DNA of 44,255 bases from a virus. Taxonomy: Duplodnaviria; Heunggongvirae; Uroviricota; Caudoviricetes. This document shows, piece after piece, positions 1,711-23,667 of the stretch. The DNA lies in IMG/VR virus record IMGVR_UViG_2690316062_000005; one strand, given 5' to 3'. Both the position numbers and the translations under genes were made by a program. The notes beneath the pieces are model-generated. The model had not been told where the DNA came from, did no database searches, and was given only the letters and a program-made list of their open reading frames with translations. Each line of letters starts with the position of its first letter. The first letter of the stretch is position 1.

Positions 1711-2829
1711 TCAGGCCACGTATTCCGGTTTCATATCCGCCAGGGTGATGCTGAATTGATCGTGCAGTTCATCGCCTAAGTGACGCTTTGAAGATGCAAG
1801 CATGCGCTCGGCTTCAGCGAACCGTTCGGCTGCATGCGGCTCGTCGGGCTGGGGCAGGGATTTAATAGCCTCCTCAACCTTGTTGCGTGCATCCACTAGG
1901 TAATAACGCTTTACGGCTTTGTTTTTCAGCTCGGTGAATAGTGCGGATCCCAGCGTAGCTTTCGCCGTTTCAATGTCGGCACGCAGCGATTTGGCGCTAT
2001 CCACGTCCTGAGCAGATTCGATGCGTTCGCGGAAATCATCGGCAAGAGAGTCGACATTTACCGACGATTCCTGTGCGCTTTGCGTGGTTGTGACGGTGTC
2101 ACCTGAGATATCAGCCAGGCTAACGCGTTGCGGCGTTGGGTTGATCTCTTTTTCTGTGCGCTGTTCAATCTCATCAGGGGTGTACACACCAAGAACAACT
2201 GCAGGGCAATATAGGCGCGCCCAGTATTTGAGTGCCAGATAAGCGATCTGCTGTTTCGGGTTTGATACCCAAAGTGGAGAATTACGTGTGATTACGCTGG
2301 AGAGGAAAACAGGCTCTCCCCAGGTGATATCACTTTCACCGCGAATAACGGCACCTACCCGTACCGACAGTCCTTGTTCATCAGCACTTTCCCAACCGCG
2401 TACCATTTCTTTCTTGTCGTACGTCCCGCCACCTTTCGCAGGCTTTTTAACGGTTATCTCGCGGCTGCTGGCACATTTCGACCAGTCGCCCTCGTACTCA
2501 TAGTGAAAGCGGCCAACGATGGCGTTTGAGCTGGAGATCACCGCATTAACCAGTTGCGCTTCGTATCCCAGGACACCGTTAACCAGGTGCGTCTTTTGCG
2601 CCACGGCGTAAGGGTTCATACCCCACTGCATCGCCTGCATGATGATGGCCATGCAGTCTGCCGGATTGCCGCGGAGGTGCTCAGGCACCGTTACGGCTGC
2701 CTGTGCCATCAACCCGGCGACAGACTGAAGCTGGGTTAAAGCCTGCACGTTGAAAATGGCATTGCTGGCTGAGATCGTGTTTGGAGTCTGCTGTTCAGCG
2801 GTTACGATATTCGTGTTTTCCATCATCAT
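1711..2829 (-). CDS. recT: RecT-family single-strand annealing recombinase
   Basis: 372 aa; central region (MQAMQWGMNPY...LGYEAQL...KYWARLY) characteristic of RecT/Bet-type annealing proteins; immediately downstream of a RecE-like exonuclease. Confidence 0.75.
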   Translation of the reverse strand: MMMENTNIVTAEQQTPNTISASNAIFNVQALTQLQSVAGLMAQAAVTVPEHLRGNPADCMAIIMQAMQWGMNPYAVAQKTHLVNGVLGYEAQLVNAVISSSNAIVGRFHYEYEGDWSKCASSREITVKKPAKGGGTYDKKEMVRGWESADEQGLSVRVGAVIRGESDITWGEPVFLSSVITRNSPLWVSNPKQQIAYLALKYWARLYCPAVVLGVYTPDEIEQRTEKEINPTPQRVSLADISGDTVTTTQSAQESSVNVDSLADDFRERIESAQDVDSAKSLRADIETAKATLGSALFTELKNKAVKRYYLVDARNKVEEAIKSLPQPDEPHAAERFAEAERMLASSKRHLGDELHDQFSITLADMKPEYVA

Positions 2830-2834
2830 TCCCC

Positions 2835-5800
2835 TTATGCCTGAGTACGCAGCGCTTCAAGGCGGCGCAGGTCGAAGTCGTTCAGTTCGTCGGTGTAGTC
2901 AGCAGTGATTGGCGCTGGCCATTCACCTGTGTCGAATCCGGTTGCGATATTGCGCATCGCTTTGCGGTACTCGAGCATACCCAGCTCCAGTAGTTCAGCG
3001 GATGCCTCGATGATGGCGATCCAGTGGTAGTTCTCGTCTTTGTTGACGAAAATCCAGAAGAACTGATCCAGCGCTGCGGTTTCGCAGTACATAGCCGCGC
3101 TCAGGTGATAATCACGTTCAATAATTTCCCGGTGTAGCCTGGCGCGCAGGCTTTCCTGCTTAACATTCCACATGCTGATGGTTTTCAGGTCTGCACCTAT
3201 ACGCACGCCATCCAGGTCGATCTCAAGGTCAGGGCGCACACGAACTTCCAAGCCCGTCTCCTCGTCAAAACCAAAGTAGCTCACCTCAACGGCTCGGCTA
3301 GGGTGGGTCAGCAGCATGCCGGCGGTCGGGTGTGCCAGAAGCGCTTTTTGAATATTCAGCGCGGTGCTCAGCTGCTGGCGGGTGACCAGCACTTTTCCTT
3401 CCGGGTTATCGCGCCAGGCATCCAGCAGTTCGTCGGCAAATACGGCATCTGGTTTGACTGCCTTCACGGCCTGGATCATGTCTGCTTTGGTACCGGACAC
3501 TTTCAGTGGTGCCGGTTTCTGTGCTTCCTGAGCCACAAGGTCAGGGTTGATGATTGCCAACTGCTCCAGCAGCGCGTCACGGCTGCCGCTGGTTTTAACC
3601 GGCGGCGGCAGGGTGGCGTTGTACTCTTTAATGCATGCCTTCATTGCCGTCGCCGTCTGCTTCTGGTCACCATCAATACGCTGGAAGTCAGCTGGCAGCG
3701 CCATATAGTTCTGTGCCGTTTCTTCCAGGTTAGCGCCAAGCGGAACCTGCGGCGGCAGGGTGGCGTTGTACTCTTCCAGTAACACCTTGATGTCGTCGGC
3801 AGACAGCAGCGCCGGCAGGCTGGCATTGTGCTCATCGATAAAGGCGCGCAGGGTCGCGGCCGTTGTGAATGCGCCTTCAGGGATCACCGGTTCAACGCTG
3901 AATTCTGCGTCCAGTAGTTCAGGCTGCAACGCCAGCGCATGCACCAAGTTGCCCATGTCCAGCACCGCTGAGCGCTCTTTGACGATGGTTTTCTCTACGT
4001 GGCGCGCATTGAAGTACATCAGCGAAACGCGCGCATCTTTCACCTGGGTTGAGCTGATGCCGTTGGCGGCGTGGTAAACCTCGTTTGGCAGCCCTTCATA
4101 GCGGCCTGGCTCGAAATAAGCGGGATAAACAACAGCTGGTTCGTCAGATTGCGCTTCTGGCTCGGTTTGTGCTGCAACTGGTTCGGTTTGGCTTACAGAA
4201 TCGCTATTTTTGGCGACAGAATCCGTATTCTGGTCTACATCGTCCTTCTGGCTGGTATCTGACTCTTCACCAGACTCCAGACTGCTTTCGCCTGGCTGTA
4301 CTTCATCACCAGCTTGTTTTTCATCACTGACAGTTTCTTGAACCTGCACATTGCTGGTGGTCTCCGTAGCCTTTTTCGTGCCATGAGTTGCTGAGTTCTG
4401 CAGCAAAGCCGTAACGTCGAATATTCCGTTGCCGACATTTTTAACCAGTTCTTGTTCGACTTTCTGCGGTTGTGCTGCCGCTTCCTCTGCGCGGCGGCGT
4501 GCTCCTTCTTCACGCACGCGTTGCAGGTTCTCTTCGTGAGTGCAGAAGGATTTGCGCGGAGACTCCTTACCTTCAGGTTGGGGAATTTCCTGTGCTGCGG
4601 GTTCAGCCTCATGCAACGGCAATAACTCGACCGCGGAATTGAACGCGGCTGTCATGGTCTGGTTAACAAATTCCAGGTGAGCGACAGGAGTTAAATGAAT
4701 ATTTTCCGGTGCGATACGTACCAGGTTAAAAATAGCCGTGCGGTTAACACCCAGAACGCCTGGCTGATTGCGCAGGATGTTGCTCCATGATTTCCATGGT
4801 TCTTCTTTTTTGGTCACGATTTCTTTAGCGCGACGAAGAATGCTGCCCGGGATCTCGAAGTGGTTGAAGTCCATAGGCAGAAGGGCACACGCAATCTCTA
4901 AATCGAGAGTGTCCAGTGTGTGGTGTGCGTCAGGTCCACGGTCAGTGACGTAACCGCCGTCGGCATTAGTGCCGGAATCAGTACGCTGCACACTACTGAT
5001 GCGATTACCGGCGGCCCATTCGCGAACGAGGATACCGCGGTCGATGTGATCTGTAGCGAACCACAATTTCAAAAACTGGATTAAGGTTGCGAGTTCAGGG
5101 ATTTTTCCATCGACAGGGAAGACTTTCTTAACGGCATTCACGACTTTATGAATATCGTGCTCAATGGCTTTTTTGAATGCTTCCACATTCTCAGCTGCCA
5201 GCAGCAGGTTCTGGACGTACGCGTCATCGGTGTCCATCTCAAGGCGGACAATCTCATTTTTCTGCCCTGCGTCGATGTGATAGAGATATTCACCATCACC
5301 GATGAACTGAGCCAGTACGCGCTGGCGGAATGGCAGGGTGGCAACAACGATCAGGTTCGGTTGCTGTGTCTGCTGGGATTGCTCTTCGGTATCGACTTCA
5401 CCATCAACGACGCCACCTTCTGCCCGGCCGTTCTCGTCGGTCTGGATACCGTCCTCAACAGTGAGATCTTGACCCGTTGTAACGTCAGCAGCGTTGCTGG
5501 TTTCAGTTTTGAGCAACTGCAACTTACCACTGCGCCAGTCTTCTACCAGTTGATTGCGGTCACCGGCATCGGTGTTCACCCAGTCAGACATGAATGCAGC
5601 GATCAATCTTGGTTCGTGCTCTTCGTCTGGTGTGAAAATGTCCTTAACCGCCCGAATCATTTTCCACTCAGCATTCAGGCTGAGTTTGGCGGTCGCGGGC
5701 ACATCGTTCCTTGCCACAAGCAGGCTATGGAGATATGTATTGCCTTCATCCAGTGACATTTCGCTGGCAGCCAACTGCTGCTCTTTAGTGACGTGGGTTT

Positions 5801-6224
5801 GGTATTTATCGTTCATCAGATGGACGGCAAAGCGGACCGCTGGAGTACGGTTTTCAACCGGGACAATTTCGGACGCAGTCGCATCTTCAACGATTACGGT
5901 CGGAGTAGGTGTGTAGGGGGCGTCAACGGAACCAGTAGACACACCAGCGGCTTTTGGCAGCCAGGTGCGCCCATCGTCCTGAAGCTCGTAGCGATCACAC
6001 CAGGTAAAATCAACTTCACCTTCTTTCGGCAGGCCGTCGACAACTGGGAAATCAGTGCGAATCGGTTTGGCGTAGTCCTTACCCCGACCTGTTTCGATAC
6101 CTGCATCTTCCAGCGCAACATCCAGCATCAGATTGGCGCGAGCCTCGGTTTTAGCAGTGAACCAGACCACTGCATCTTGCTTTCCGGATTTCTGAGTGGC
6201 TTTAACCACATTAAAGAATTCCAT
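2835..6224 (-). CDS. recE: Exodeoxyribonuclease VIII (RecE-like) with C-terminal PD-(D/E)XK nuclease domain
   Basis: 1129-aa ORF; GAGGA RBS upstream; long acidic/low-complexity N-terminal region and conserved C-terminal nuclease region; paired with recT as in Rac-type prophages. Confidence 0.7.
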   Translation of the reverse strand: MEFFNVVKATQKSGKQDAVVWFTAKTEARANLMLDVALEDAGIETGRGKDYAKPIRTDFPVVDGLPKEGEVDFTWCDRYELQDDGRTWLPKAAGVSTGSVDAPYTPTPTVIVEDATASEIVPVENRTPAVRFAVHLMNDKYQTHVTKEQQLAASEMSLDEGNTYLHSLLVARNDVPATAKLSLNAEWKMIRAVKDIFTPDEEHEPRLIAAFMSDWVNTDAGDRNQLVEDWRSGKLQLLKTETSNAADVTTGQDLTVEDGIQTDENGRAEGGVVDGEVDTEEQSQQTQQPNLIVVATLPFRQRVLAQFIGDGEYLYHIDAGQKNEIVRLEMDTDDAYVQNLLLAAENVEAFKKAIEHDIHKVVNAVKKVFPVDGKIPELATLIQFLKLWFATDHIDRGILVREWAAGNRISSVQRTDSGTNADGGYVTDRGPDAHHTLDTLDLEIACALLPMDFNHFEIPGSILRRAKEIVTKKEEPWKSWSNILRNQPGVLGVNRTAIFNLVRIAPENIHLTPVAHLEFVNQTMTAAFNSAVELLPLHEAEPAAQEIPQPEGKESPRKSFCTHEENLQRVREEGARRRAEEAAAQPQKVEQELVKNVGNGIFDVTALLQNSATHGTKKATETTSNVQVQETVSDEKQAGDEVQPGESSLESGEESDTSQKDDVDQNTDSVAKNSDSVSQTEPVAAQTEPEAQSDEPAVVYPAYFEPGRYEGLPNEVYHAANGISSTQVKDARVSLMYFNARHVEKTIVKERSAVLDMGNLVHALALQPELLDAEFSVEPVIPEGAFTTAATLRAFIDEHNASLPALLSADDIKVLLEEYNATLPPQVPLGANLEETAQNYMALPADFQRIDGDQKQTATAMKACIKEYNATLPPPVKTSGSRDALLEQLAIINPDLVAQEAQKPAPLKVSGTKADMIQAVKAVKPDAVFADELLDAWRDNPEGKVLVTRQQLSTALNIQKALLAHPTAGMLLTHPSRAVEVSYFGFDEETGLEVRVRPDLEIDLDGVRIGADLKTISMWNVKQESLRARLHREIIERDYHLSAAMYCETAALDQFFWIFVNKDENYHWIAIIEASAELLELGMLEYRKAMRNIATGFDTGEWPAPITADYTDELNDFDLRRLEALRTQA

Positions 6225-7466: not shown

Positions 7467-7537
7467 CTCAATCCCCTCGTTTGCCCTTGTCGCCAGGCCA
7501 GCGGAACGTTTGAACTTGATGCGCTTAGTGTTTCTCG

Positions 7538-7590
7538 ATGGGGTGATGATAGCTAAGGCGATTTATTTTATCAATCGCTTAAACGATAAT
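7538..7590 (-). promoter_or_regulatory. Putative pL: -35 TTGATA / -10 TATCAT (minus strand, 17-bp spacer) with overlapping operator-like site
   Basis: Minus-strand hexamers at 7569-7574 and 7546-7551; ATCGCTTAAACGAT (7574-7587) resembles the ATCGC-N4-GCGAT operators at the cI/cro switch. Confidence 0.3.
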
Positions 7591-7911
7591 ATTGTGATTT
7601 TGCCGATTATTATTTGATTTATAAAGTGATTTATTTTTGTATGAGATGCGTGATATGCTCAAAAAAACACCAGGCGGGGATATTGATATGGGTTTAGGAA
7701 TGGATATGTCACGTGATGAGCTGCTGGAAGATCGCGCTGCTTTCATGGCTGGCGAGATTGGCGGTGCAGTTGTCGAGTAGATAATCAACGGTGTGGTGAT
7801 AAGTCGAGATGCGATAGTAGATAGCTTGGAGACTAAGCGTCGCGCGGTTGGAAATGTGATTCACAAAGGAGTGTTGTGGGATGTCACTGCTATGGTGAGA
7901 AAAGGAATATG

Positions 7912-7930
7912 AAAACCGGCATAATGCCGG
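7912..7930 (-). terminator. Intrinsic terminator ending the cI immunity operon
   Basis: CCGGC-ATAAT-GCCGG hairpin (7916-7930) directly after the stop of the 210-aa gene, followed on the minus strand by a U-run (AAAA at 7912-7915 on plus). Confidence 0.5.
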
Positions 7931-7931
7931 T

Positions 7932-8564
7932 TTACTTTGATTTTTCCTGTTGGTGAAGTACTCGTGGAGTAGTTGGTTCTTGAGGTAATTGGATGATAAC
8001 AGGTTGCTGCGCTACTGGTTGAACTACGGGCGGATCACTCTTCAAGGCAGAAACAAGACTAGGTAATGCAACGACAACCGCAATGATAACGCCAAAAATA
8101 GCAAGCCTAGTGGAAATACCTGATTGAATACCGCCAATCGCAGTGTTTATTCCTGTAATTTGCCCTTGTATACCTTCGAATTTGCCATTGATGGCTTTTA
8201 CATCCCCATCAACGCTATCCATTTTCCCTTCAATTTTAGAAGAAATAGAGCTAATAGATGAATTGAGCGATGCCAGCTGAACGTTCATATTCTCGCGTGA
8301 CAAAGCCATTTCAGCTCTAATCGAAGATGCAATGGACTCCATCTCCGCCTTATTGGCAGCTAGAAGTGCTTGCATTTCTTCACGGCTAACTGATGACATT
8401 TCATTTCCCCCATCAGTTTCATTAGCTTCATCTGTTGATTTGATAAAGTTAGTATACATTTCTTCTTTATCGACGCGTAGTCTGTTTTGAACATTGGGGT
8501 ACAGGTCATCTTTATCAATGCCAGAACCGCAGTCTGGGACAGCTTTGAGAGATGGGCCCATCAC
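7932..8564 (-). CDS. Coiled-coil protein with C-terminal transmembrane anchor (unknown function)
   Basis: 210 aa; strong AAGGAG RBS; helical repeat-rich middle; hydrophobic segment LAIFGVIIAVVVALPSLVSAL near C-terminus then Pro/Gln-rich tail; start overlaps stop of upstream gene. Confidence 0.6.
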   Translation of the reverse strand: MMGPSLKAVPDCGSGIDKDDLYPNVQNRLRVDKEEMYTNFIKSTDEANETDGGNEMSSVSREEMQALLAANKAEMESIASSIRAEMALSRENMNVQLASLNSSISSISSKIEGKMDSVDGDVKAINGKFEGIQGQITGINTAIGGIQSGISTRLAIFGVIIAVVVALPSLVSALKSDPPVVQPVAQQPVIIQLPQEPTTPRVLHQQEKSK

Positions 8565-8923
8565 TTCCCATCCTCTCCTTGATCTTCTTTTCTTTTATTA
8601 ATCAGTGTCCTGGCTTTTTTATAAGAAAAAAGCAGTACATGTGCGCAGTGATCACACGTGATTCGAAATAGTGGCATACCGCCAGGATATGTCACAGCAC
8701 TATCAGTATCAGGTTTGTATTGTGCATAACTAAGTGTTTCGATCACATGATGTTTTGGCTGATTTTCTTCTACATCAAGATCAAAGGCACCAACTACAGA
8801 CCATGACTGGTTCCCGCAGATTTGGCAAGTTATTGGTTTTTTGAATGAATTTATGAAATCAATGAACTCATCCGCTGTGATAATCTCGGAGTTTGCTTCA
8901 CTATGAAATAATTCCGATTTCAT
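8561..8923 (-). CDS. Zinc-ribbon protein (unknown function)
   Basis: Start moved to internal ATG (MKSELFH...) with AAGGA RBS; CQIC ... CDHC pair; 120 aa; 44 bp downstream of cI on the same strand. Confidence 0.55.
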   Translation of the reverse strand: MKSELFHSEANSEIITADEFIDFINSFKKPITCQICGNQSWSVVGAFDLDVEENQPKHHVIETLSYAQYKPDTDSAVTYPGGMPLFRITCDHCAHVLLFSYKKARTLINKRKEDQGEDGK

Positions 8924-8967
8924 AATTATGATCCTTTTCTGGGCCAAAGTAGATAAAAAGTACAGTT

Positions 8968-9651
8968 TTACAATCGGTTATACTTTATTGATTCATGAAT
9001 CAATGCCTTACCCATTACGTAGAGTTGATCCTGATTACCTTCGTTAATGTACCACTTCTCATAAGCTGAGTTATCAGACAAAACTGCCAACCTATCGCCC
9101 TGCATCTGCAAGCGCTTCACATGGAAATGTTGTCCGAAAACGAACGCATAAACACCGTCGACCTTGAAGTTTCTTACAGAAATATCGAAAAACAATCTGT
9201 CACCAGACTGTATAGTTGGACACATGCTGTCGCCATCGACCGTCATTACTTTTACGTCTTCCTGAGAACGATTTCCGAAGAGTGAACGAGCGTGTTCGGT
9301 TGTGAACTCAATGGCGTGTAGAACCTCAACAAACTCAGAAATCATGAAAGAACCTGGCCCCGCGCTAAATGTCAGGTCAAGTACGTCAACTCTGAATATG
9401 TTTGAGTCTTTTTTTGTCGCGGTAATGGGAGGCGGTAGCTGGCCATCGTTACGCATCGGTCCGGATCCCGTGGAAAGCCATTCAGGGCGAACATTGAGAA
9501 CAGAAGCTATCTCGACCGTTTTTCTTGAGCTTGATGCACCATTTAGCAGCTTGTTAACACTTGACTGTGCCATGCCAACTGCCTTAGCTAGCTTGCCCTG
9601 TGTATAACCCGCCTCATTCATTGCGCGATCTAATCGCTCAGAAAAACTCAT
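8968..9651 (-). CDS. cI: CI-like prophage repressor (HTH + S24/LexA-type autopeptidase domain)
   Basis: Start set at MSFSERLDRAMNEAGYTQGKLAKAVG (HTH); C-terminal GDSM (Ser) and HVKRL (Lys) dyad of S24 peptidases; divergent from cro with operators between. Confidence 0.85.
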   Translation of the reverse strand: MSFSERLDRAMNEAGYTQGKLAKAVGMAQSSVNKLLNGASSSRKTVEIASVLNVRPEWLSTGSGPMRNDGQLPPPITATKKDSNIFRVDVLDLTFSAGPGSFMISEFVEVLHAIEFTTEHARSLFGNRSQEDVKVMTVDGDSMCPTIQSGDRLFFDISVRNFKVDGVYAFVFGQHFHVKRLQMQGDRLAVLSDNSAYEKWYINEGNQDQLYVMGKALIHESIKYNRL

Positions 9652-9679
9652 TAAAGATACCCCCCTAATAACCTTCATA

Positions 9680-9760
9680 AATATTATCGCCACAGCGATT
9701 AATAAGCAAAAAATCGCATAGGCGATTGACATTCGTTAAAGCGATAAACATAATCAACCT
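9680..9760. promoter_or_regulatory. Immunity switch: two 14-bp palindromic operators with divergent pRM / pR promoters
   Basis: ATCGCCACAGCGAT (9686-9699) and ATCGCATAGGCGAT (9713-9726); pR -35 TTGACA (9726-9731) and -10 CATAAT (9749-9754), 17-bp spacer; pRM on minus strand -35 TTGCTT (9704-9709) and -10 TAATAT (9681-9686), 17-bp spacer. Confidence 0.55.
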
Positions 9761-14844: not shown

Positions 14845-15495
14845 ATGAGCGACAACCAGTTAGCACCTTGTTGGGAATTTCAGCCTTACCTTGCTGAAAG
14901 CAATGTTCGTCAGTTGTTAGCGGAAATTGCTAATGTACTCGAGCAATTGTACTACCACAAACACACACTGGACAGTAACTGGTCCGAAGGTGTAAGGGCT
15001 TATGATTGGGTCAGAAATCATTTGATTCAAAGTGAAGGGACACTGCCGGGTCTGGAAATGGTTTCGAAGGGACTGGATTATGTGGTTGCGTTAAATAAAG
15101 TGCCGCTGCAGTTCTCCAAAGATTGCATTAATAACCCGAAGAAGAAGCATCGCCTTCTTCGAAATAGGGTGGAGCATGAGCAACTTTCATTGTTCGGTGA
15201 AACTGAAGCCGAGCAAGATATTACATGGCGGATCATCGCCGAACCATTTTTATCCGATGAAGAAGATGGCGAGCTGGAATCAACATTGCCTCGCTGGGAA
15301 GTGGCTTTAGTTGGGTTTAACGCATATGGTGCCCAGATCAGTATGGTTTCACACCAATCTACTGCTTCAGCGCCGCTTATGTCTCTTGATACCAACACTC
15401 TTCCGGATGAAGCTGAGATTGGCAAAGCCTCTCTTCGCCGCCGTAAAAAAGATCAAGATTTGGATGTGAGCAGTAATGGAACATCAAGTGAATGA
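14845..15495 (+). CDS. Hypothetical protein, unknown fold; candidate toxin/effector partner of downstream HTH-peptidase
   Basis: 216 aa; no motif I recognise; overlaps the downstream gene by 20 nt (out of frame). Confidence 0.55.
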   Translation: MSDNQLAPCWEFQPYLAESNVRQLLAEIANVLEQLYYHKHTLDSNWSEGVRAYDWVRNHLIQSEGTLPGLEMVSKGLDYVVALNKVPLQFSKDCINNPKKKHRLLRNRVEHEQLSLFGETEAEQDITWRIIAEPFLSDEEDGELESTLPRWEVALVGFNAYGAQISMVSHQSTASAPLMSLDTNTLPDEAEIGKASLRRRKKDQDLDVSSNGTSSE

Positions 15496-16579
15496 CTTTG
15501 CTGAGTATCGTGGGGATAAGCTCAAATTAGCCAGAATGGCTGTTGGGCTCTCCTGCGAAGAGTTAGCGGAGAAAATTGGTAAAACAAAACAATTCGTTAG
15601 CAAATTGGAAAAAGGGTTTAAACCATCAGAACAGTTGTTAGAATTAATCTCATCTGCGCTGATGATTAAATCTGATTTCCTATTTACTGAACGAAAATAT
15701 GCTTTAGAAAGCGATGTTTGCCATTTTCGGAGTAAAAAATCGAGAACCCAAACATTAACCAATAGTGTTCTGGCAAGGGCGGAGATTCTTAACATTATAA
15801 TCTCTGCCGTTGAGGGAGAAATCGAGTTTCCTGATGTTTTCATACCTGAGCACCCCGGTGCTGAATTGCTGACTCCAAATGATATTGAACGTGTAGCGGA
15901 AGACTGCAGAAGAGCATGGAACTTAGGGCTGGGACCTATATCCTCAATGGTCAAACTGGCTGAGAGTTTGGGGGTTATTGTTGCTCATGTGACAGGAGTG
16001 GATGACCGCGTAGATGCTTTTACTGTTCATAACAACAGGCCAGTAATCATCCGAAATAACGTCAAAAAGAGTATATGCAGATTCCGATCAGATTTAGGTC
16101 ACGAATTGGGGCACTTGGTTATGCACGAAGGTATAACCACAGGAGATAAAGTGACTGAATCGCAAGCGGATCGTTTTTCAAGCGCGTTGCTAGTTCCTCG
16201 ATTGTCCTTTATTAAAGAGTTTCCCCGTATACGAGGAAGACAGTTCGATTGGAACGCCCTAGTTGAGTTTAAGCTTCGGTGGAAGATTAGTCTTAAAATG
16301 TGCATTTACCGAGCAACAACTCTAGGCCTGCTGACGCAGGAGCAGGCAAGAACAGGTTATATGCATTTGAACTCTAAAGGATATACGAAAGTTGAACCAG
16401 GAGATGAATTTATTCGCCCGGAAGAACCGAGTATGTTAGCTGAGGCGATTGAAATGCTGGATGATGCAACATGGATGAGCATTCTCATGAAAACTGGTTT
16501 AAGCCAGGAGTTGGTTAGGGAGTTATTCTCGGTAAACCGCCCACTGTCAAATCCAAGAAATCTACTTCAACTGGTTTGA
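15476..16579 (+). CDS. XRE-family HTH fused to ImmA/IrrE-type zinc metallopeptidase (COG2856-like)
   Basis: 367 aa; N-terminal HTH (LARMAVGLSCEELAEKIGKTKQFVSKLEKG); HEXXH zinc-binding motif in DLGHELGHLVMHEG. Confidence 0.8.
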   Translation: MEHQVNDFAEYRGDKLKLARMAVGLSCEELAEKIGKTKQFVSKLEKGFKPSEQLLELISSALMIKSDFLFTERKYALESDVCHFRSKKSRTQTLTNSVLARAEILNIIISAVEGEIEFPDVFIPEHPGAELLTPNDIERVAEDCRRAWNLGLGPISSMVKLAESLGVIVAHVTGVDDRVDAFTVHNNRPVIIRNNVKKSICRFRSDLGHELGHLVMHEGITTGDKVTESQADRFSSALLVPRLSFIKEFPRIRGRQFDWNALVEFKLRWKISLKMCIYRATTLGLLTQEQARTGYMHLNSKGYTKVEPGDEFIRPEEPSMLAEAIEMLDDATWMSILMKTGLSQELVRELFSVNRPLSNPRNLLQLV

Positions 16580-18718: not shown

Positions 18719-19411
18719 ATGAATACTCAATTTCTCGAATACGTGCGCCAGCAGTTGATGGTGGCCACCGCCGATTTAAGTGGTGCGACAAAAGGACAGC
18801 TGCAGGCGTTCAGTGATCATCCACCAGCAGATAAGAACAAATACCCCCGGCACCATCCTGAAATCGTCATGGAAGGTGGGGAAGGTTGTGGATCGAAGGT
18901 TGTAAAAACTCTGGCCACTCCGCTTTATGTTCTTGAGACAAGGAGCCGTCGCCGACCTTTACCGCCTATTAAGGATACGGAGTTCGCTTGTTCAGCATGG
19001 CGTCGGTCGGTGAATGGTCTGGGGGAGCATTTGCAGGCATGGGTGCGGTATTGCTATGGGTATGACCTGACCTTCCGGTACCAGACGTTAATGTGCCAGT
19101 ACGTGTGGGAACAATTTCAGCGTCAGCATAGCGGCAAAAAAATACAGGGCCGTGTCACTAAAAAACTGATAGGGCTTGTCTGGCTGGCGGCGCAAGAAGT
19201 TGCTGCCTCGCGTAATAACGATACCTATCAGGAGTATGCTGGAGCAGCTCTGGCGCGCATGGTCAGCGTTGAGCGTTCCACCTGGCTCAGAGTGTATTCA
19301 GGCCACTGGGCGGCTTTCAAAGCGTCGTTTGCAGAAATGGACAGCCAGGCACTAAGCGAAATTTTGTCACGGTACGAAGAGTACCAAGAACTCAAAGTGG
19401 CGGAAATGTGA
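18719..19411 (+). CDS. Late-gene antiterminator Q-like protein
   Basis: 230 aa; located after rusA and directly upstream of late promoter/terminator and lysis genes; Cys-containing segment; assignment mainly positional. Confidence 0.55.
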   Translation: MNTQFLEYVRQQLMVATADLSGATKGQLQAFSDHPPADKNKYPRHHPEIVMEGGEGCGSKVVKTLATPLYVLETRSRRRPLPPIKDTEFACSAWRRSVNGLGEHLQAWVRYCYGYDLTFRYQTLMCQYVWEQFQRQHSGKKIQGRVTKKLIGLVWLAAQEVAASRNNDTYQEYAGAALARMVSVERSTWLRVYSGHWAAFKASFAEMDSQALSEILSRYEEYQELKVAEM

Positions 19412-19506
19412 GATAACTTTCACTAACTCCCTCAATTGGGCTTGCAAAATGCAACAAAATAAGCGATATTTGAAGCTAATTTGATATGTTGCCAACAGTA
19501 TATAAA

Positions 19507-19528
19507 CCCGCCAGTGAGCGGGTTTTTT
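19507..19528 (+). terminator. tR'-like intrinsic terminator downstream of the late promoter
   Basis: CCCGC-CAGTGA-GCGGG hairpin followed by TTTTTT about 100 nt after the Q stop; candidate -35 TTGCAA (19442-19447) upstream. Confidence 0.6.
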
Positions 19529-19880
19529 AATTTTGCGGAATACTTTTTTAATCGCAGAAAAGCATGTCGTTTCGTTTTGATAGGAAAAAACGATGGATAG
19601 GCAACACAAGGCTCTAATGTGCGTAAGTTTGATGGATATGATAATTACGCACAGCTTATCAACAATATTTTGCTATTAGTTAAGTTGTGAATAACTTTTT
19701 TTGTTGATAACTCTTTTTTCTGTGGATAAGTCTGTAGGTTTATTAAATTCTTATGCACAAGTAGAACGCTGATGGTCCTGTACAATCCCGTAAAAGCTTC
19801 AATACTGATGACAGCAATATAAAAACCTATCCAGTGAAGCTATTGAAAACATACAGAATTTGGTTTTCTTCGGGAAAATT

Positions 19881-20636
19881 ATGTCAGGACAGCCTGAGTC
19901 AAAAGAACAAGAACTGCTTGCAACAATCCTCGATTACTTCCAGAAGGGAGAAGTCCCGGATACAGACACTATTGCGGAAATTGAGCGCGACATTGCTAAA
20001 CTTCCAATAAGTGAGCGCGCACATGCGTATGCATGGCTTAATGGAACTCTCGGGCGTCACTCTGATGCAGTACGTTTATTCAAAGACGCGATGAGCTCTG
20101 GGAGTCCAACGATCGCACAAAACTACTTGGCGTATCTTTCTCGTTCGGCTCATAACTATGAGCATCGCGTTGAGTTGTTTAGAATAGTTGAGCTTTTCCC
20201 TTCACATGAACTGAGGCTTGTAGCAAGAAACGCTGCATTTTGTATCGGCAACGACAAGTTGGTTAAAAAGTTCTCCCTCAAAATGGCTGCTCTTTATGAT
20301 GGCCAAGAGCGAGAGGATATAATCAATCAGGGAAATTATATGGCTGAACAGATTGTTGATTTCAAAAACGCTACCCGTCTTTCTTCTCGAGAACTAGAAG
20401 CCCTTTGCGATCAAGCTGAAGAGATTGCGAACAAGCGCGGTATTAACTGTTCAAGTGTTAGCTATTATCTTGGTGGAGATGATGACAATGCATTCATCGT
20501 TAGAGCCCAAACTGCTGATCCGCAGGTTTTAGCTGAAATGAACATGGAACTGTTGGTTTTGCTCTCAGATGATAGTTATCGGAACAGCCCTTTTACATCC
20601 TGGTTTCAAAGCGATGAAAAAAGAGGGATTTACTGA
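19881..20636 (+). CDS. Hypothetical protein (moron, all-alpha)
   Basis: 251 aa from ATG at 19881 (ORF track begins at an upstream TTG); 1-nt TGATG coupling to the next gene. Confidence 0.55.
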   Translation: MSGQPESKEQELLATILDYFQKGEVPDTDTIAEIERDIAKLPISERAHAYAWLNGTLGRHSDAVRLFKDAMSSGSPTIAQNYLAYLSRSAHNYEHRVELFRIVELFPSHELRLVARNAAFCIGNDKLVKKFSLKMAALYDGQEREDIINQGNYMAEQIVDFKNATRLSSRELEALCDQAEEIANKRGINCSSVSYYLGGDDDNAFIVRAQTADPQVLAEMNMELLVLLSDDSYRNSPFTSWFQSDEKRGIY

Positions 20637-21040
20637 TGAGCGTATCGGGGAAAGATTTTATTGTTTTTGCTGGTAAATGCATTTCTCACAACGATGAAAT
20701 CGGTTACAGAAACGCCATTGGTCGAGCGTATTATGGAGTTTATCATGAAACGCTTGATAAGCTTGAGAAATGCCCAAACAAGTCGTCACACCAAGCTGTT
20801 CGCGACTATCTTACAAATGATGCATGGTTAAAAGGAAATGAGCCGTTTGAAAAAATGAAACTCATTTCTATGGGAACAATGCTGAGACATTTGCATACCC
20901 GACGTAAATGGGCAGATTACGAGCTTGATAGAACTTTAAGTAAGGCTGATGCGGAAGCTATATTGATAATGGCTAACAAAGCTATTGACACCCTTCAGCA
21001 GATGTATGAGCAGGTTTATCCATCCGAACCTGCTGCTTGA
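20636..21040 (+). CDS. Hypothetical protein with R-x6-H motif (possible HEPN-like domain)
   Basis: 134 aa; AGAGGGA RBS; motif RAYYGVYHE near N-terminus; followed by a terminator. Confidence 0.55.
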   Translation: MSVSGKDFIVFAGKCISHNDEIGYRNAIGRAYYGVYHETLDKLEKCPNKSSHQAVRDYLTNDAWLKGNEPFEKMKLISMGTMLRHLHTRRKWADYELDRTLSKADAEAILIMANKAIDTLQQMYEQVYPSEPAA

Positions 21041-21057
21041 TTATCTATTCGAAATAA

Positions 21058-21080
21058 CCTCGCTTAAGCGGGGTTTTTTT
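21058..21080 (+). terminator. Intrinsic terminator
   Basis: Hairpin around CGCTT/AAGCG followed by TTTTTTT. Confidence 0.55.
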
Positions 21081-21249
21081 ATGCCTTCGCACCTCCATTT
21101 CGGAGGTATTTTGCTGTGAAAATGGGCGGCTGGTGGATGTTGGAGCACCCACCAGCCATCAGCTCATGCTTTCAGGTCACAAGCTAACCAAGGCCCATTG
21201 CTTTAGCGCAAAAGCAAAGAGAGCCTATCAGAGTTACGCTTATTGATCT

Positions 21250-22302
21250 ATGAAAAATACTGTAAATATAAACAGTGTTGAGTTAGTCAACGCTGATAGC
21301 CTGCAATACATCGCCACTCTCCCTGATAACTCCATTGACCTGATAGTCACGGATCCGCCGTACTTCAAAGTGAAACCCAACGGCTGGGACAATCAGTGGA
21401 AAGGGGATGAGGATTATCTTCGCTGGCTTGATATGTGCCTCGCACAATTCTGGCGAGTGCTTAAACCTGCTGGCAGTCTTTATCTTTTCTCCGGTCACCG
21501 CCTGGCGGCAGACATTGAGATCATGATGCGTGAGCGGTTCAACGTCCTGAACCACATCATCTGGGCTAAACCGTCGGGCCGCTGGAATGGCTGTAATAAA
21601 GAGAGTCTGCGCTCTTACTTCCCTGCAACAGAGCGCATCCTCTTCGCTGAGCATTACCAGGGGCCGTATAAACCAAAGAGCGACGGTTACGCGGAGAAGG
21701 GAAGCGAGCTGAAGCAGCATGTAATGACTCCCCTAATTTCTTATTTCCGGGATGCACGTGAAGCGCTTGGCATAACCTCAAAACAAATAGCCGATGCGAC
21801 TGGAAAGAAGAACATGGTGTCTCACTGGTTCAGCGGTAGCCAGTGGCAATTACCGAATGAATCAGACTACCGGAATCTTCAGTCCCTTTTCACGCAGGTA
21901 GCCATCGAAAAGCACCAGAACGGCGAACTGGCAACACCACACCACCAGCTGGTGGCTATGTGGCATTCGTTAAATCGCAAGTATTCAGAGCTGCTCGAAG
22001 AGTACAAATCGCTTCGGCGGCATTTCTCTGTTTCCGTATCCGTTCCTTATACCGACGTCTGGACACATAAACCCGTTCAGTTTTACCCAGGTAAACACCC
22101 ATGCGAAAAACCCGCTGACATGTTGCGGCAGATCATCAACGCCAGCAGTAAGCCTAGTGATGTGGTGGCTGATTTCTTTATGGGGTCCGGTTCGACCGTG
22201 AAAATCGCGCTGGAACTTGGCCGCCAGGCTATCGGCGTTGAACTCGAGGAGGACAGGTTTAGCCAGACGGTGGAGGAAATAAGGGCGTTAACAGGGGAAT
22301 AA
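21250..22302 (+). CDS. DNA amino-methyltransferase (N6-adenine or N4-cytosine; beta-class motif order)
   Basis: 350 aa; DPPY motif (LIVTDPPYF) near N-terminus and FxGxG-like AdoMet motif (DFFMGSGST) near C-terminus; no adjacent restriction endonuclease. Confidence 0.8.
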   Translation: MKNTVNINSVELVNADSLQYIATLPDNSIDLIVTDPPYFKVKPNGWDNQWKGDEDYLRWLDMCLAQFWRVLKPAGSLYLFSGHRLAADIEIMMRERFNVLNHIIWAKPSGRWNGCNKESLRSYFPATERILFAEHYQGPYKPKSDGYAEKGSELKQHVMTPLISYFRDAREALGITSKQIADATGKKNMVSHWFSGSQWQLPNESDYRNLQSLFTQVAIEKHQNGELATPHHQLVAMWHSLNRKYSELLEEYKSLRRHFSVSVSVPYTDVWTHKPVQFYPGKHPCEKPADMLRQIINASSKPSDVVADFFMGSGSTVKIALELGRQAIGVELEEDRFSQTVEEIRALTGE

Positions 22303-22370: not shown

Positions 22371-22673
22371 ATGAAAATGAATGATTCAGGGAACATTTTC
22401 ACGCAGTTCTTCGCGTGGGTAGCAGCTCTGGCGTCAGCCATTGGTTTTACCACTCAGGATATGGTGTTCATGTTCTTTGGCGCCGCTGGTCTGCTTATCT
22501 CGTTTGCCTCCTATGTCAATGGTCGCGTGGATGCCCACCGCAGGCGTAGAGAGGACGAGAAGCGAACAAAAATGGTTAATGACTACCTGAAAGGCGTTGG
22601 TGATAAACCCCTTCACGAACGTCCTGCGGCTGCAAGCGTGGTCGTTGAGGCATTACAAAAGGAAGGTGAGTGA
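22371..22673 (+). CDS. Holin
   Basis: 100 aa; MKMN dual-start-like N-terminus; two to three hydrophobic helices; charged C-terminal tail; immediately upstream of endolysin. Confidence 0.6.
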   Translation: MKMNDSGNIFTQFFAWVAALASAIGFTTQDMVFMFFGAAGLLISFASYVNGRVDAHRRRREDEKRTKMVNDYLKGVGDKPLHERPAAASVVVEALQKEGE

Positions 22674-23206
22674 TGGGATCCAGAGCAAAATTAAGTGCTG
22701 CTGTTCTGGGGTTGGTACTTGCTGGTGCGCCAGCATCCGTCATTCTCGATCAGTTTCTGAATGAGAAAGAGGGAAACAGCCTTACAGCGTACAAAGATGG
22801 CAGCGGTATCTGGACGATTTGCCGGGGAGCTACCACGGTTGACGGCAAGCCTGTTACCCCAGGTATGAGGCTATCGCCAGAGAAATGTAATCAGGTGAAC
22901 GCCAGCGAGCTGAACAAGGCGCTGGCTTGGGTCGACCGCAATATCCAGGTACCACTGACCGAACCGCAGAAAGCGGGGATTGCCTCATTCTGCCCGTACA
23001 ACATTGGTCCTGGTAAATGCTTCCCTTCTACCTTTTATAAACGCATCAACGCCGGTGATCGTAAAGGGGCATGTGAAGCAATCCGCTGGTGGATCAAAGA
23101 CGGTGGCCGCGATTGCCGACTAACCAAAGGCCAGAAGAATGGCTGCTATGGTCAGGTTGAGAGACGGGACCAGGAAAGCGCGCTGGCGTGTTGGGGGTTA
23201 GATTAG
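22673..23206 (+). CDS. SAR endolysin (T4-lysozyme-like muramidase with N-terminal signal-arrest-release domain)
   Basis: Hydrophobic Gly/Ala-rich N-terminus ([19 protein letters not shown]) followed by E-x8-D-x5-T catalytic spacing ([16 protein letters not shown]). Confidence 0.8.
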
Positions 23207-23667
23207 TGAGCCGATTAACAGCAATTATCTGTGCTGTCGTTATCTGCCTGATGGTTTCCATGGCTTGGGCTATTAACCACTACCGCGGCAACGCCATCAC
23301 CTACAAAGACCAGCGCGATAAAGCCATTAAGAATCTTAACCAGGCGAACGCCACCATCAAAGACATGCAGATCCGCCAGCGTGATGCAGCGGTGCTGGAT
23401 GCCAAATACACGAAGGACTTAGCTGATGCTAAAAAGCAGCTTGATGATTTGCAGCGTTGTGTTCGCACTGGCAAGTGTGGGCTGCACGTCAACGCCAGAT
23501 GTCCCGCGAACGGAGCGACCAGCACCGGCGGCCTGGGCGATGTTACCGGCCCCCGACTTACTGACTCCGCTGAACGGGATTATTTCACCCTCAGAGAGCG
23601 AATCGTCACAGTGACGAAACAGGTTGGATATTTGCAGGAATACATCAAAGAGCAGTGCTTAAATTGA
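23206..23667 (+). CDS. rz: Rz i-spanin
   Basis: N-terminal TM segment then coiled coil; close to lambda Rz (…[19 protein letters not shown]…[15 protein letters not shown]…). Confidence 0.75.
23426..23614 (+). CDS. rz1: Rz1 o-spanin lipoprotein, embedded out of frame within rz
   Basis: 62 aa; signal peptide with lipobox-like SVGC; Pro-rich; ...[10 protein letters not shown] matches lambda Rz1; GAAGGA RBS. Confidence 0.75.

Follow-up and report, generated by a model that had tools for sequence, protein, structure and literature searches.

A two-gene prophage insert encoding a TPR-like protein and a non-canonical HEPN protein: a candidate abortive-infection module in Escherichia coli

The gene pair and its insertion site

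The IMG/VR virus record IMGVR_UViG_2690316062_000005 is a stretch of 44,255 nucleotides, referred to here in its full length as the window, which represents a lambdoid prophage of Escherichia coli; in the interval that was compared (19400-21250) its sequence and that of the ECONIH4 chromosome are 100% identical. Downstream of its Q-type late antiterminator gene the window carries a cassette of two genes, designated ORF1 and ORF2 (open reading frames 1 and 2), where ORF1 encodes a 251-residue protein built largely of TPR-like helices and ORF2 a 134-residue protein that is a HEPN domain of the AF0298/UPF0332 type (HEPN-T; PF05168 clade). The cassette had been noticed in a preliminary description of this DNA, and the analysis reported here concerns its boundaries, the likely active site of the HEPN protein and the role that the pair may play in the prophage. 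The features of the insert are listed below, followed by those of the conserved backbone on either side.

19531-19880, plus strand: AT-rich upstream region of 350 bp with a guanine-plus-cytosine (GC) content of 0.34, conserved along with the cassette in prophages having a different Q gene
19881-20636, plus strand: ORF1, from the ATG at 19881 to the stop codon; 251 residues, TPR-like with a C-terminal alpha/beta part; proposed regulator, antitoxin or sensor partner
20636-21040, plus strand: ORF2; 134 residues, HEPN domain of the AF0298/UPF0332 (HEPN-T) type; proposed RNase effector with putative catalytic residues H52 and R90
21056-21082, plus strand: intrinsic terminator closing the cassette, an 8-bp GC-rich stem followed by a T7 run
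18719-19411, plus strand: Q-type late antiterminator gene of the left backbone (PF06323, E 2.6e-44; phrog_304)
19504-19530, plus strand: intrinsic terminator (tR'-like) after the Q-proximal leader, a stem-loop and T-run found by terminator scan, with the left insert junction just past the T-run
21089-21249, plus strand: conserved non-coding leader of the methyltransferase gene, about 95% identical in phage Flotzy and the ECONIH5 prophage, with unrelated sequence to its left; the right insert junction lies at its start
21250-22302, plus strand: N6/N4 DNA methyltransferase of 350 residues, belonging to the backbone and not to the cassette (PF01555, E 4e-42; PADLOC MTase_II, E 1.7e-145)
22371-23667, plus strand: lysis cassette with a holin-like 100-residue ORF, a lysozyme and a spanin-like protein, from the ORFs and the RefSeq annotation of the identical prophage

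The limits of the insert, as judged by aligning the window with phage Flotzy and the ECONIH5 prophage, lie at approximately 19531 and 21088, almost exactly the coordinates (19531-21080) that had first been given for the cassette. Flotzy, ECONIH5 and VE-F5 share the Q-proximal leader as far as approximately 19530 and diverge beyond it, and the GC content of the cassette (0.37-0.44) is lower than that of the flanks (about 0.50-0.55). Within these conserved borders, Flotzy holds approximately 130 bp with a 50-residue ORF (locus L002, 1814-1966), while ECONIH5 holds an unrelated gene for a 159-residue hypothetical protein on the opposite strand (locus L003, 2634-3113). Because its relatives hold different cargo there, this site, bounded by the Q terminator and the methyltransferase leader, is a genuine cargo hotspot, and the initial proposal of a two-gene moron at a variable site 3' of Q is thereby borne out. 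The insert has the marks of a lambdoid moron, being absent from relatives, deviant in composition and provided with a terminator of its own, the stem-loop and T-run at 21056-21082 that had been predicted 3' of the pair. The interval between Q and the lysis genes is a classic position for lysogenic-conversion cargo. The cassette had been placed between the late terminator and the lysis cassette, and this stands on the side of the Q terminator, but direct adjacency to the lysis genes does not, since the methyltransferase gene, which is kept in relatives that do not have the cassette, intervenes.

Among 5426 complete E. coli genomes the cassette was found in 12, where all copies are chromosomal and at least 99.7% identical and some follow a different Q gene; no diverged cassette was found in E. 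coli by blastn. The two genes overlap by a single base within the sequence TGATG, as had been noted, and this coupling is confirmed both by the ORFs and by the coding sequences that RefSeq calls in strain ECONIH4, each labelled 'hypothetical protein'. A Shine-Dalgarno sequence for ORF2 (AGAGGGA) is located within the 3' end of ORF1.

The region upstream of the pair had been described as a 330-bp AT-rich promoter region. It is indeed AT-rich, but promoter scans of 19531-19880 found no plus-strand sigma-70 consensus site, with the best score falling below the median of shuffled sequence. Copies of the pair located at prophage ends or in the early region carry, 71-76 nt upstream of ORF1, the sequence GTGACA-N16-TGnTA(C/G)AAT, an extended -10 promoter-like element; the window copy is without GTGACA-N16-TGnTACAAT. 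The element was located as follows.

Locus L005, approximately 230-270: extended -10 promoter-like element upstream of ORF1
Locus L021, approximately 5130-5170: extended -10 promoter-like element upstream of ORF1
Locus L006, approximately 5125-5165: extended -10 promoter-like element upstream of ORF1

Transcription of the window copy might depend mainly on read-through governed by Q, or else start at a weak promoter within the AT-rich stretch. A search of 19300-21400 against Rfam returned sub-threshold matches at chance level only, with no match to a retron. As a separate observation, the 160-nt methyltransferase leader begins with a stem-loop at 21091-21107 and gives only sub-threshold Rfam matches; this leader (21089-21249) may be a regulatory RNA or a late-operon leader.

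The HEPN protein and its candidate active site

The assignment of ORF2 rests on structural models and family profiles. Its AlphaFold model (predicted local distance difference test score, pLDDT, of 93.7) has helices at residues 5-16, 21-42, 52-62, 73-95 and 103-127, forming the four-helix up-down bundle with an insert between helices 2 and 3 that defines the HEPN superfamily. A Foldseek search, which the preliminary description had recommended as a check for this fold, ranked 2hsb (AF0298) first, and the ORF2 family profile matched the PDB entries 9xbd (E 1.8e-10) and AF0298/2hsb (E 4e-7). The HEPN model PF05168 is matched by 8 of 24 family members (best E 1.5e-5), some public sources name the homologues 'HEPN domain-containing' or 'UPF0332', and the conserved acidic HEPN feature E-x3-[KR] is present as an invariant E21-x3-R25 at the start of helix 2. 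When the window ORF1 and ORF2 were searched singly, nothing significant was found in Pfam or NCBIfam and the PDB searches were empty; with PADLOC, ORF1 gave no match and ORF2 a single weak, sub-threshold one to PDC-M05B (E 0.012). It had been stated that neither protein matches a nameable family, which needs correction: ORF2 belongs to phrog_5176 and to HEPN/UPF0332, and ORF1 to phrog_17809, both phrogs being families of unknown function. The two PDB entries whose chains are closest to ORF2, 9xbc and 9xbd, both deposited as 'HEPN domain-containing protein', differ at the tyrosine of an R-x3-D-Y motif (DYDL versus DFDL), and their depositors apparently treat the tyrosine equivalent to Y95 of ORF2 as functionally important; no relevant paper on these entries or on the RefSeq accessions was found in the literature searched.

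The possible RNase nature of ORF2 had originally been proposed from the sequence RAYYGVYHE, which is present at R30 to H37 and was taken for the R-x6-H signature of HEPN RNases. In canonical HEPN domains the Rx4-6H motif is found at the C-terminal end of core helix 3, with the conserved acidic E-x3-K/R in helix 2 (Anantharaman 2013, PMC3710099). In the ORF2 model both R30 and H37 fall midway along helix 2 (residues 21-42), an Rx4-6H pattern occurs at least once in 55% of shuffled ORF2 sequences, so that its presence is not above chance, and the residues are not kept in related structures, with the equivalent of H37 being Tyr in 9xbd and Leu in the HEPN protein of Retron-Kva2 and the equivalent of R30 being Thr in AF0298. 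For these reasons R30-x6-H37 is not the HEPN RNase signature; ORF2 is a HEPN protein and plausibly a toxin, as first suggested, but on other grounds and with other candidate catalytic residues. Even so, both residues must matter for something, because they are invariant within the ORF2 family; a helical-wheel estimate puts them on the face of helix 2 opposite to E21 and R25. The canonical motif site of ORF2 is instead occupied by R90-K-W-A-D94-Y95, in which Asp replaces His and no Rx4-6H occurs.

A different site is suggested by conservation. Across 23 ORF2 homologues, down to 28% identity, the residues E21, R25, R30, Y32, Y33, H37, H52, R90, D94 and Y95 are invariant. It has been reported that in AF0298-type HEPN-T domains the motif histidine is absent, often being replaced by Asp, and that a second conserved histidine in the insert between helices 2 and 3 may form an alternative site with the motif arginine (PMC3710099). 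ORF2 has precisely these features, and in AF0298 and 9xbd the corresponding Asp and His align with its invariant D94 and H52.

Recent work on type IX retrons provides the closest functional parallel. The HEPN protein of Retron-Kva2 is without an Rx4-6H motif, and the substitutions H64A and R122A each abolish toxicity and defence; the active site lies at the dimer interface and the enzyme cleaves rRNA and tRNA, while the winged-helix (WH) partner protein wraps around the enzyme and is by itself able to neutralise it (July 2026 preprint, bioRxiv 10.64898/2026.07.14.738597). HEPN_IX, the PADLOC model for this effector, matches 8 of 23 ORF2 family members (best E 3.5e-7), although not the window protein, and the matches are collinear across both halves of the proteins. 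In an alignment to the Kva2 protein (PDB 36ht_I), H52 corresponds to H64 and R90 to R122, with R-G-I-V-D-Y in the retron protein facing R-K-W-A-D-Y in ORF2; hhalign gave E 0.0011 for the N-terminal half. The equivalence of H52 and R90 with H64 and R122 is well supported by this pattern, although not proven. H52 is thus likely to be the catalytic histidine of ORF2, acting with R90, and the Kva2 protein, which is toxic alone, neutralised by a wrapping partner and an effector of abortive infection, is the best available precedent for ORF2 as a putative active RNase toxin checked by a protein partner.

The partner protein and the distribution of the pair

The ORF1 model (pLDDT 86.8) shows eight short paired TPR-like helices (residues 8-136) and two long helices (141-184), followed by a beta-beta-alpha-beta unit (190-244), a C-terminal element that contradicts the earlier view of an all-alpha protein. 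TPR models of Pfam are matched by 9 of 45 ORF1 homologues, and the family profile matches consensus PPR/TPR proteins with E values of 1e-10 to 1e-5. An exhaustive search of 1.84 billion representative proteins yielded 71 relatives, nearly all of 250-260 residues, collinear and of a single architecture. Not one residue is invariant across the 45 homologues, and a GGDDDN segment of ORF1 is lost in distant partners. No PADLOC model was matched consistently, and HTH, RHH and AbrB domains were not detected in ORF1. Two candidate identities were considered and rejected: a nucleotidyltransferase, for which the GSx10DxD motif, a match to the nucleotidyltransferase fold and matches to PADLOC M05A or MNT models are all missing, and a relative of the retron WH protein, to whose chain there is no match. 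Most likely, therefore, ORF1 serves as a binding protein without enzymatic activity.

All loci examined have an ORF1-like gene encoding 234-271 residues directly upstream of the HEPN gene; the two usually overlap or are a few bases apart, and the identity of ORF1 (48%, 45%, 31% and 28%) tracks that of ORF2. The partner is detectably homologous to ORF1 down to 28% identity, and weakly so in phage Chronis; for the partner in a Vibrio P2-like phage, homology to ORF1 was not demonstrable (hhalign probability 1.7%). The pair was always found in phages or prophages at sites of accessory genes, and no ORF2 homologue occurs among 72,556 plasmids. Besides that of the window, its locations include the following.

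Serratia prophages: pair between Q and holin
Two Mu-like prophages (Aeromonas, Pseudaeromonas): pair between Mor and endolysin
E. coli: pair beside a divergent M78-peptidase gene, upstream of nin genes and Q
Erwinia and one metagenome contig: pair after the tail fibre at the prophage end
Metagenome contig: pair adjoining the integrase
Klebsiella phage Chronis: pair in the nin region
Klebsiella phage ST405-OXA48phi1.3: pair in the structural region, with ORF2 broken
Vibrio P2-like phage: pair between gpA and the portal gene

The interval between gpA and the portal gene is a published defence hotspot of P2 phages (Rousset 2022, PMC9122126), although no TPR and HEPN pair is listed in that study. 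In ST405-OXA48phi1.3 (locus L014, 4053-4396) the ORF2 homologue is split into two small annotated coding sequences next to an intact ORF1-like gene, which suggests a decayed module. A further observation concerns the Aeromonas Mu-like prophage (locus L019, 2212-3027), where a 271-residue gene with a weak TIR_2 match lies on the opposite strand just upstream of Mor and may represent a second defence-like cargo in a prophage that carries the pair.

Comparison with described systems indicates both the affinities of the pair and its peculiarities. HEPN-T proteins of the AF0298/UPF0332 type (PF05168 clade; 2hsb, 9xbd) are typically stand-alone, or paired or fused with a minimal nucleotidyltransferase (MNT), their biochemistry is uncharacterised, and they are enriched in archaea and thermophiles, whereas ORF2 occurs with a TPR partner in an enterobacterial prophage. 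The type IX retron HEPN (Retron-Kva2, HEPN_IX, 36ht) resembles ORF2 in being non-canonical, with aligned His and Arg and a D-Y pair; it is longer, at 174 residues against 134, and its system needs a reverse transcriptase, an msr/msd RNA and the WH partner. None of these occurs at the pair, whose neighbours are Q and the methyltransferase, and ORF1 has no sequence similarity to WH. The type VII toxin-antitoxin (TA) systems of the HEPN-MNT type (HepT/MntA) and PDC-M05 share with the pair a two-gene operon with a small downstream HEPN gene and a tyrosine after the motif, and ORF2 has weak profile similarity to PDC-M05B. HepT, however, belongs to the DUF86 clade with a canonical R-x4-H-x-Y, and its antitoxin is a nucleotidyltransferase with GSx10DxD, unlike ORF1; a paper on fused MNT-HEPN proteins (PMC13000451) likewise concerns canonical HepT and not the clade of ORF2. 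The pair is therefore neither HEPN-MNT or PDC-M05, which require a nucleotidyltransferase, nor a type IX retron, which requires a reverse transcriptase, a non-coding RNA and WH.

Other prophage-encoded HEPN proteins of abortive infection, namely HepS, Tha of Staphylococcus aureus phages and AbiV, belong to other HEPN clades and have no TPR partner; HepS of Gifsy-1 is a single 218-residue protein with a canonical R100-H105. DS-28 of DefensePredictor is, like the pair, a two-gene E. coli system with a small HEPN protein, and its defence has been validated. It was considered as the same system and rejected as an unrelated HEPN pair, having the reverse gene order, a canonical RNSVAH and a non-TPR partner; when the published sequences were inspected, no evident likeness to either protein of the pair was seen. 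The defence catalogues and literature searched did not yield the pair, and PADLOC-DB 2.0 detects no system.

Proposed function and other features of the prophage

Taken together, the region 19531-21088 is a horizontally mobile, prophage-borne two-gene module that would act in the manner of a TA or abortive-infection system. ORF2 is proposed to dimerise and to build a non-canonical site out of H52, located in the helix 2-3 insert, and R90 at the end of core helix 3 (R90-x3-D94-Y95), mirroring the type IX retron HEPN that cuts rRNA and tRNA. ORF1, translationally coupled to ORF2 and co-evolving with it, would bind the HEPN protein and hold it inactive until a trigger supplied by an infecting phage reaches the TPR surface of ORF1, whereupon the HEPN protein would be released or activated. 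RNA cleavage, growth arrest and the exclusion of competing phages would then follow. The analysis establishes the gene structure, the limits of the insert, the HEPN fold and subfamily of ORF2 with its conserved residues, the TPR nature of ORF1, the joint inheritance of the two genes and their strict association with accessory sites of phages; within this scheme the RNase activity, the toxicity, the neutralisation by ORF1, the trigger and the defence phenotype are inferred. The reading of the pair as a TA-like abortive-infection module, in which a non-canonical HEPN-T RNase is gated by a TPR partner, is put at evenly balanced probability. An abortive-infection or TA role is plausible and is strengthened by context, as the pair occupies accessory-gene sites that include the P2 defence hotspot and the prophage of the window has a Rosmer system in another low-GC island. 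A more specific form of the proposal, an undescribed family of prophage abortive-infection systems in which a TPR sensor-antitoxin directly gates a split His/Arg HEPN-T RNase, would make ORF2 the first AF0298/UPF0332 immune effector that has neither a nucleotidyltransferase nor a retron partner; it is advanced tentatively, at somewhat below an even likelihood. A stranger variant, in which the module serves the late programme of the phage itself, is less likely.

Several observations weigh against an abortive-infection module. The window ORF2 falls below the threshold of every Pfam, NCBIfam and PADLOC model, its links being drawn through family profiles and structure, and even the direct comparison of the ORF2 family profile with the Kva2 HEPN is weak (E = 0.69). 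Because the canonical catalytic histidine is missing, the proposed activity of ORF2 depends on analogy with the type IX retron, and an RNase function is putative for the family as a whole. ORF1, at 251 residues, is nearly twice the size of the putative toxin, exceeding that of a typical antitoxin, and has no DNA-binding domain. The pair is also absent among the validated systems of DefensePredictor, within those supplementary files that could be searched. Finally, there is no good sigma-70 promoter upstream of the window copy, and its position past the late terminator may mean that expression takes place mainly in the late lytic phase and not in the lysogen. The repeated occurrence of the pair just before lysis genes, in three phage types, could indicate a role in the lytic cycle of the phage itself.

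It is mainly this lack of a consensus promoter in a copy downstream of the late terminator that keeps a lytic-cycle function as a serious rival, although on balance it is held to be unlikely. The pair would in that case be expressed with the late operon through Q-dependent or Mor/C-dependent read-through and serve the phage itself without protecting the lysogen, for example by cleaving host RNA late, countering a host defence, or excluding co-infecting phages during lytic growth only. Four independent backbones place the pair between a late regulator and lysis genes (E. coli and Serratia between Q and holin, and two Mu-like prophages between Mor and endolysin), three of them with short intergenic gaps (137-245 bp in loci L010, L012 and L019, as compared with 469 bp in the window) and no convincing promoter, and the extended -10 promoter of the prophage-end copies is not found in the window. 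Copies outside late transcription speak against it, since the pair is also found beside an integrase, behind tail fibres but on the other strand, within the early or nin region and at the gpA-portal hotspot of P2, and some of these copies own a GTGACA-N16-TGnTACAAT promoter. The same holds for the classic use of the Q-to-lysis interval by lysogenic-conversion cargo, and for the fact that most relatives manage without the pair, as its presence in only 12 of the 5426 genomes illustrates.

Slightly less probable is a selfish addiction module, with ORF2 as the toxin and ORF1 as a labile antitoxin that stabilise the cassette or prophage without any sensing of phages. The gene order and overlap fit the layout of type II TA systems, with two translationally coupled genes of which the first encodes the putative neutraliser, this HEPN clade has elsewhere been described in TA pairs (PDC-M05, HEPN-MNT), and the near identity of the cassette, at least 99.7% over different prophage backbones, points to recent spread. 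A TPR protein of the length of ORF1, in which no DNA-binding domain was detected, is nevertheless atypical of type II antitoxins, TPR proteins usually binding ligands or other proteins. The pair is confined to phages, whereas addiction modules are common on plasmids, and the decayed copy in the Klebsiella phage argues against strong addiction.

It is improbable that ORF2 is an RNase-dead HEPN protein, with Asp in place of the motif His, that would act as a ligand-binding or RNA-binding adaptor on an ORF1 scaffold in a regulatory role. Such an adaptor would agree with the absence of Rx4-6H from its canonical position and with the existence of nucleotide-binding, non-nuclease members among PF05168-type HEPN domains (PMC3710099), but the ten polar or aromatic residues that remain invariant down to 28% identity imply a constrained functional site, and in the retron IX HEPN catalysis relies on this very constellation, H...R-x3-D-Y. 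Very improbable, finally, is a type VII-like system in which ORF1, as a divergent nucleotidyltransferase, would AMPylate Y95 of ORF2 in the way that MntA modifies HepT: the invariant Tyr after the motif (compare R-x4-H-x-Y of HepT), the usual pairing of the HEPN-T clade with MNT and the change of the equivalent Tyr to Phe by the depositors of 9xbc would suit it, whereas ORF1 bears no nucleotidyltransferase signature.

Should the reading as a TPR-gated abortive-infection module prove correct, it would add a defence or toxin module that PADLOC-DB 2.0 misses as a system and that the literature searched does not show. The abundant but biochemically obscure UPF0332/AF0298 clade of HEPN-T could then be active RNases through a His...Arg-x3-Asp-Tyr site, in support of the alternative site predicted in 2013, for which the literature searched offers experimental tests in type IX retrons only (2026). 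Partners would appear to be swapped around one effector, be it a nucleotidyltransferase, a retron reverse transcriptase with WH, or a TPR protein, and an uncharacterised, archaea-enriched type of HEPN-T would be tied to phage exclusion in enterobacteria. The residues to which the analysis points are H52 and R90, with D94 and Y95, and not solely the pair R30 and H37. The recurrent placement between late regulator and lysis genes raises the question of when a prophage expresses a potentially suicidal RNase.

Other parts of the window hold further features of interest. A second low-GC island (GC 0.41-0.45) at 14845-16579 on the plus strand carries a Rosmer pair, a complete defence or TA system formed by RmrT (216 residues; PADLOC E 2.4e-26) and RmrA (367 residues, with HTH and M78 peptidase domains; PADLOC E 1.6e-106). 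The cassette is therefore accompanied in this prophage by at least one defence system of a recognised kind. On the minus strand at 7932-8947, two unannotated ORFs of 128 and 210 residues (GC 0.38-0.42) lie directly downstream of the gene for an S24/HTH cI-like repressor on the same strand (8968-9732), the position of rexAB in lambda. They have no PADLOC match, and a Pfam match to Baculo_PEP_C (E 5.9e-5) is below the cut-off of that model; in the adjacent bin 7501-8000 the GC skew has the unusual value of +0.40, and a search for tandem repeats was negative. Also on the minus strand, at 1711-6224, the RecT gene (372 residues) adjoins that of an unusually long RecE-like protein of 1129 residues, which combines an N-terminal match to Exonuc_VIII with a C-terminal PDDEXK domain of the DUF3799 family.

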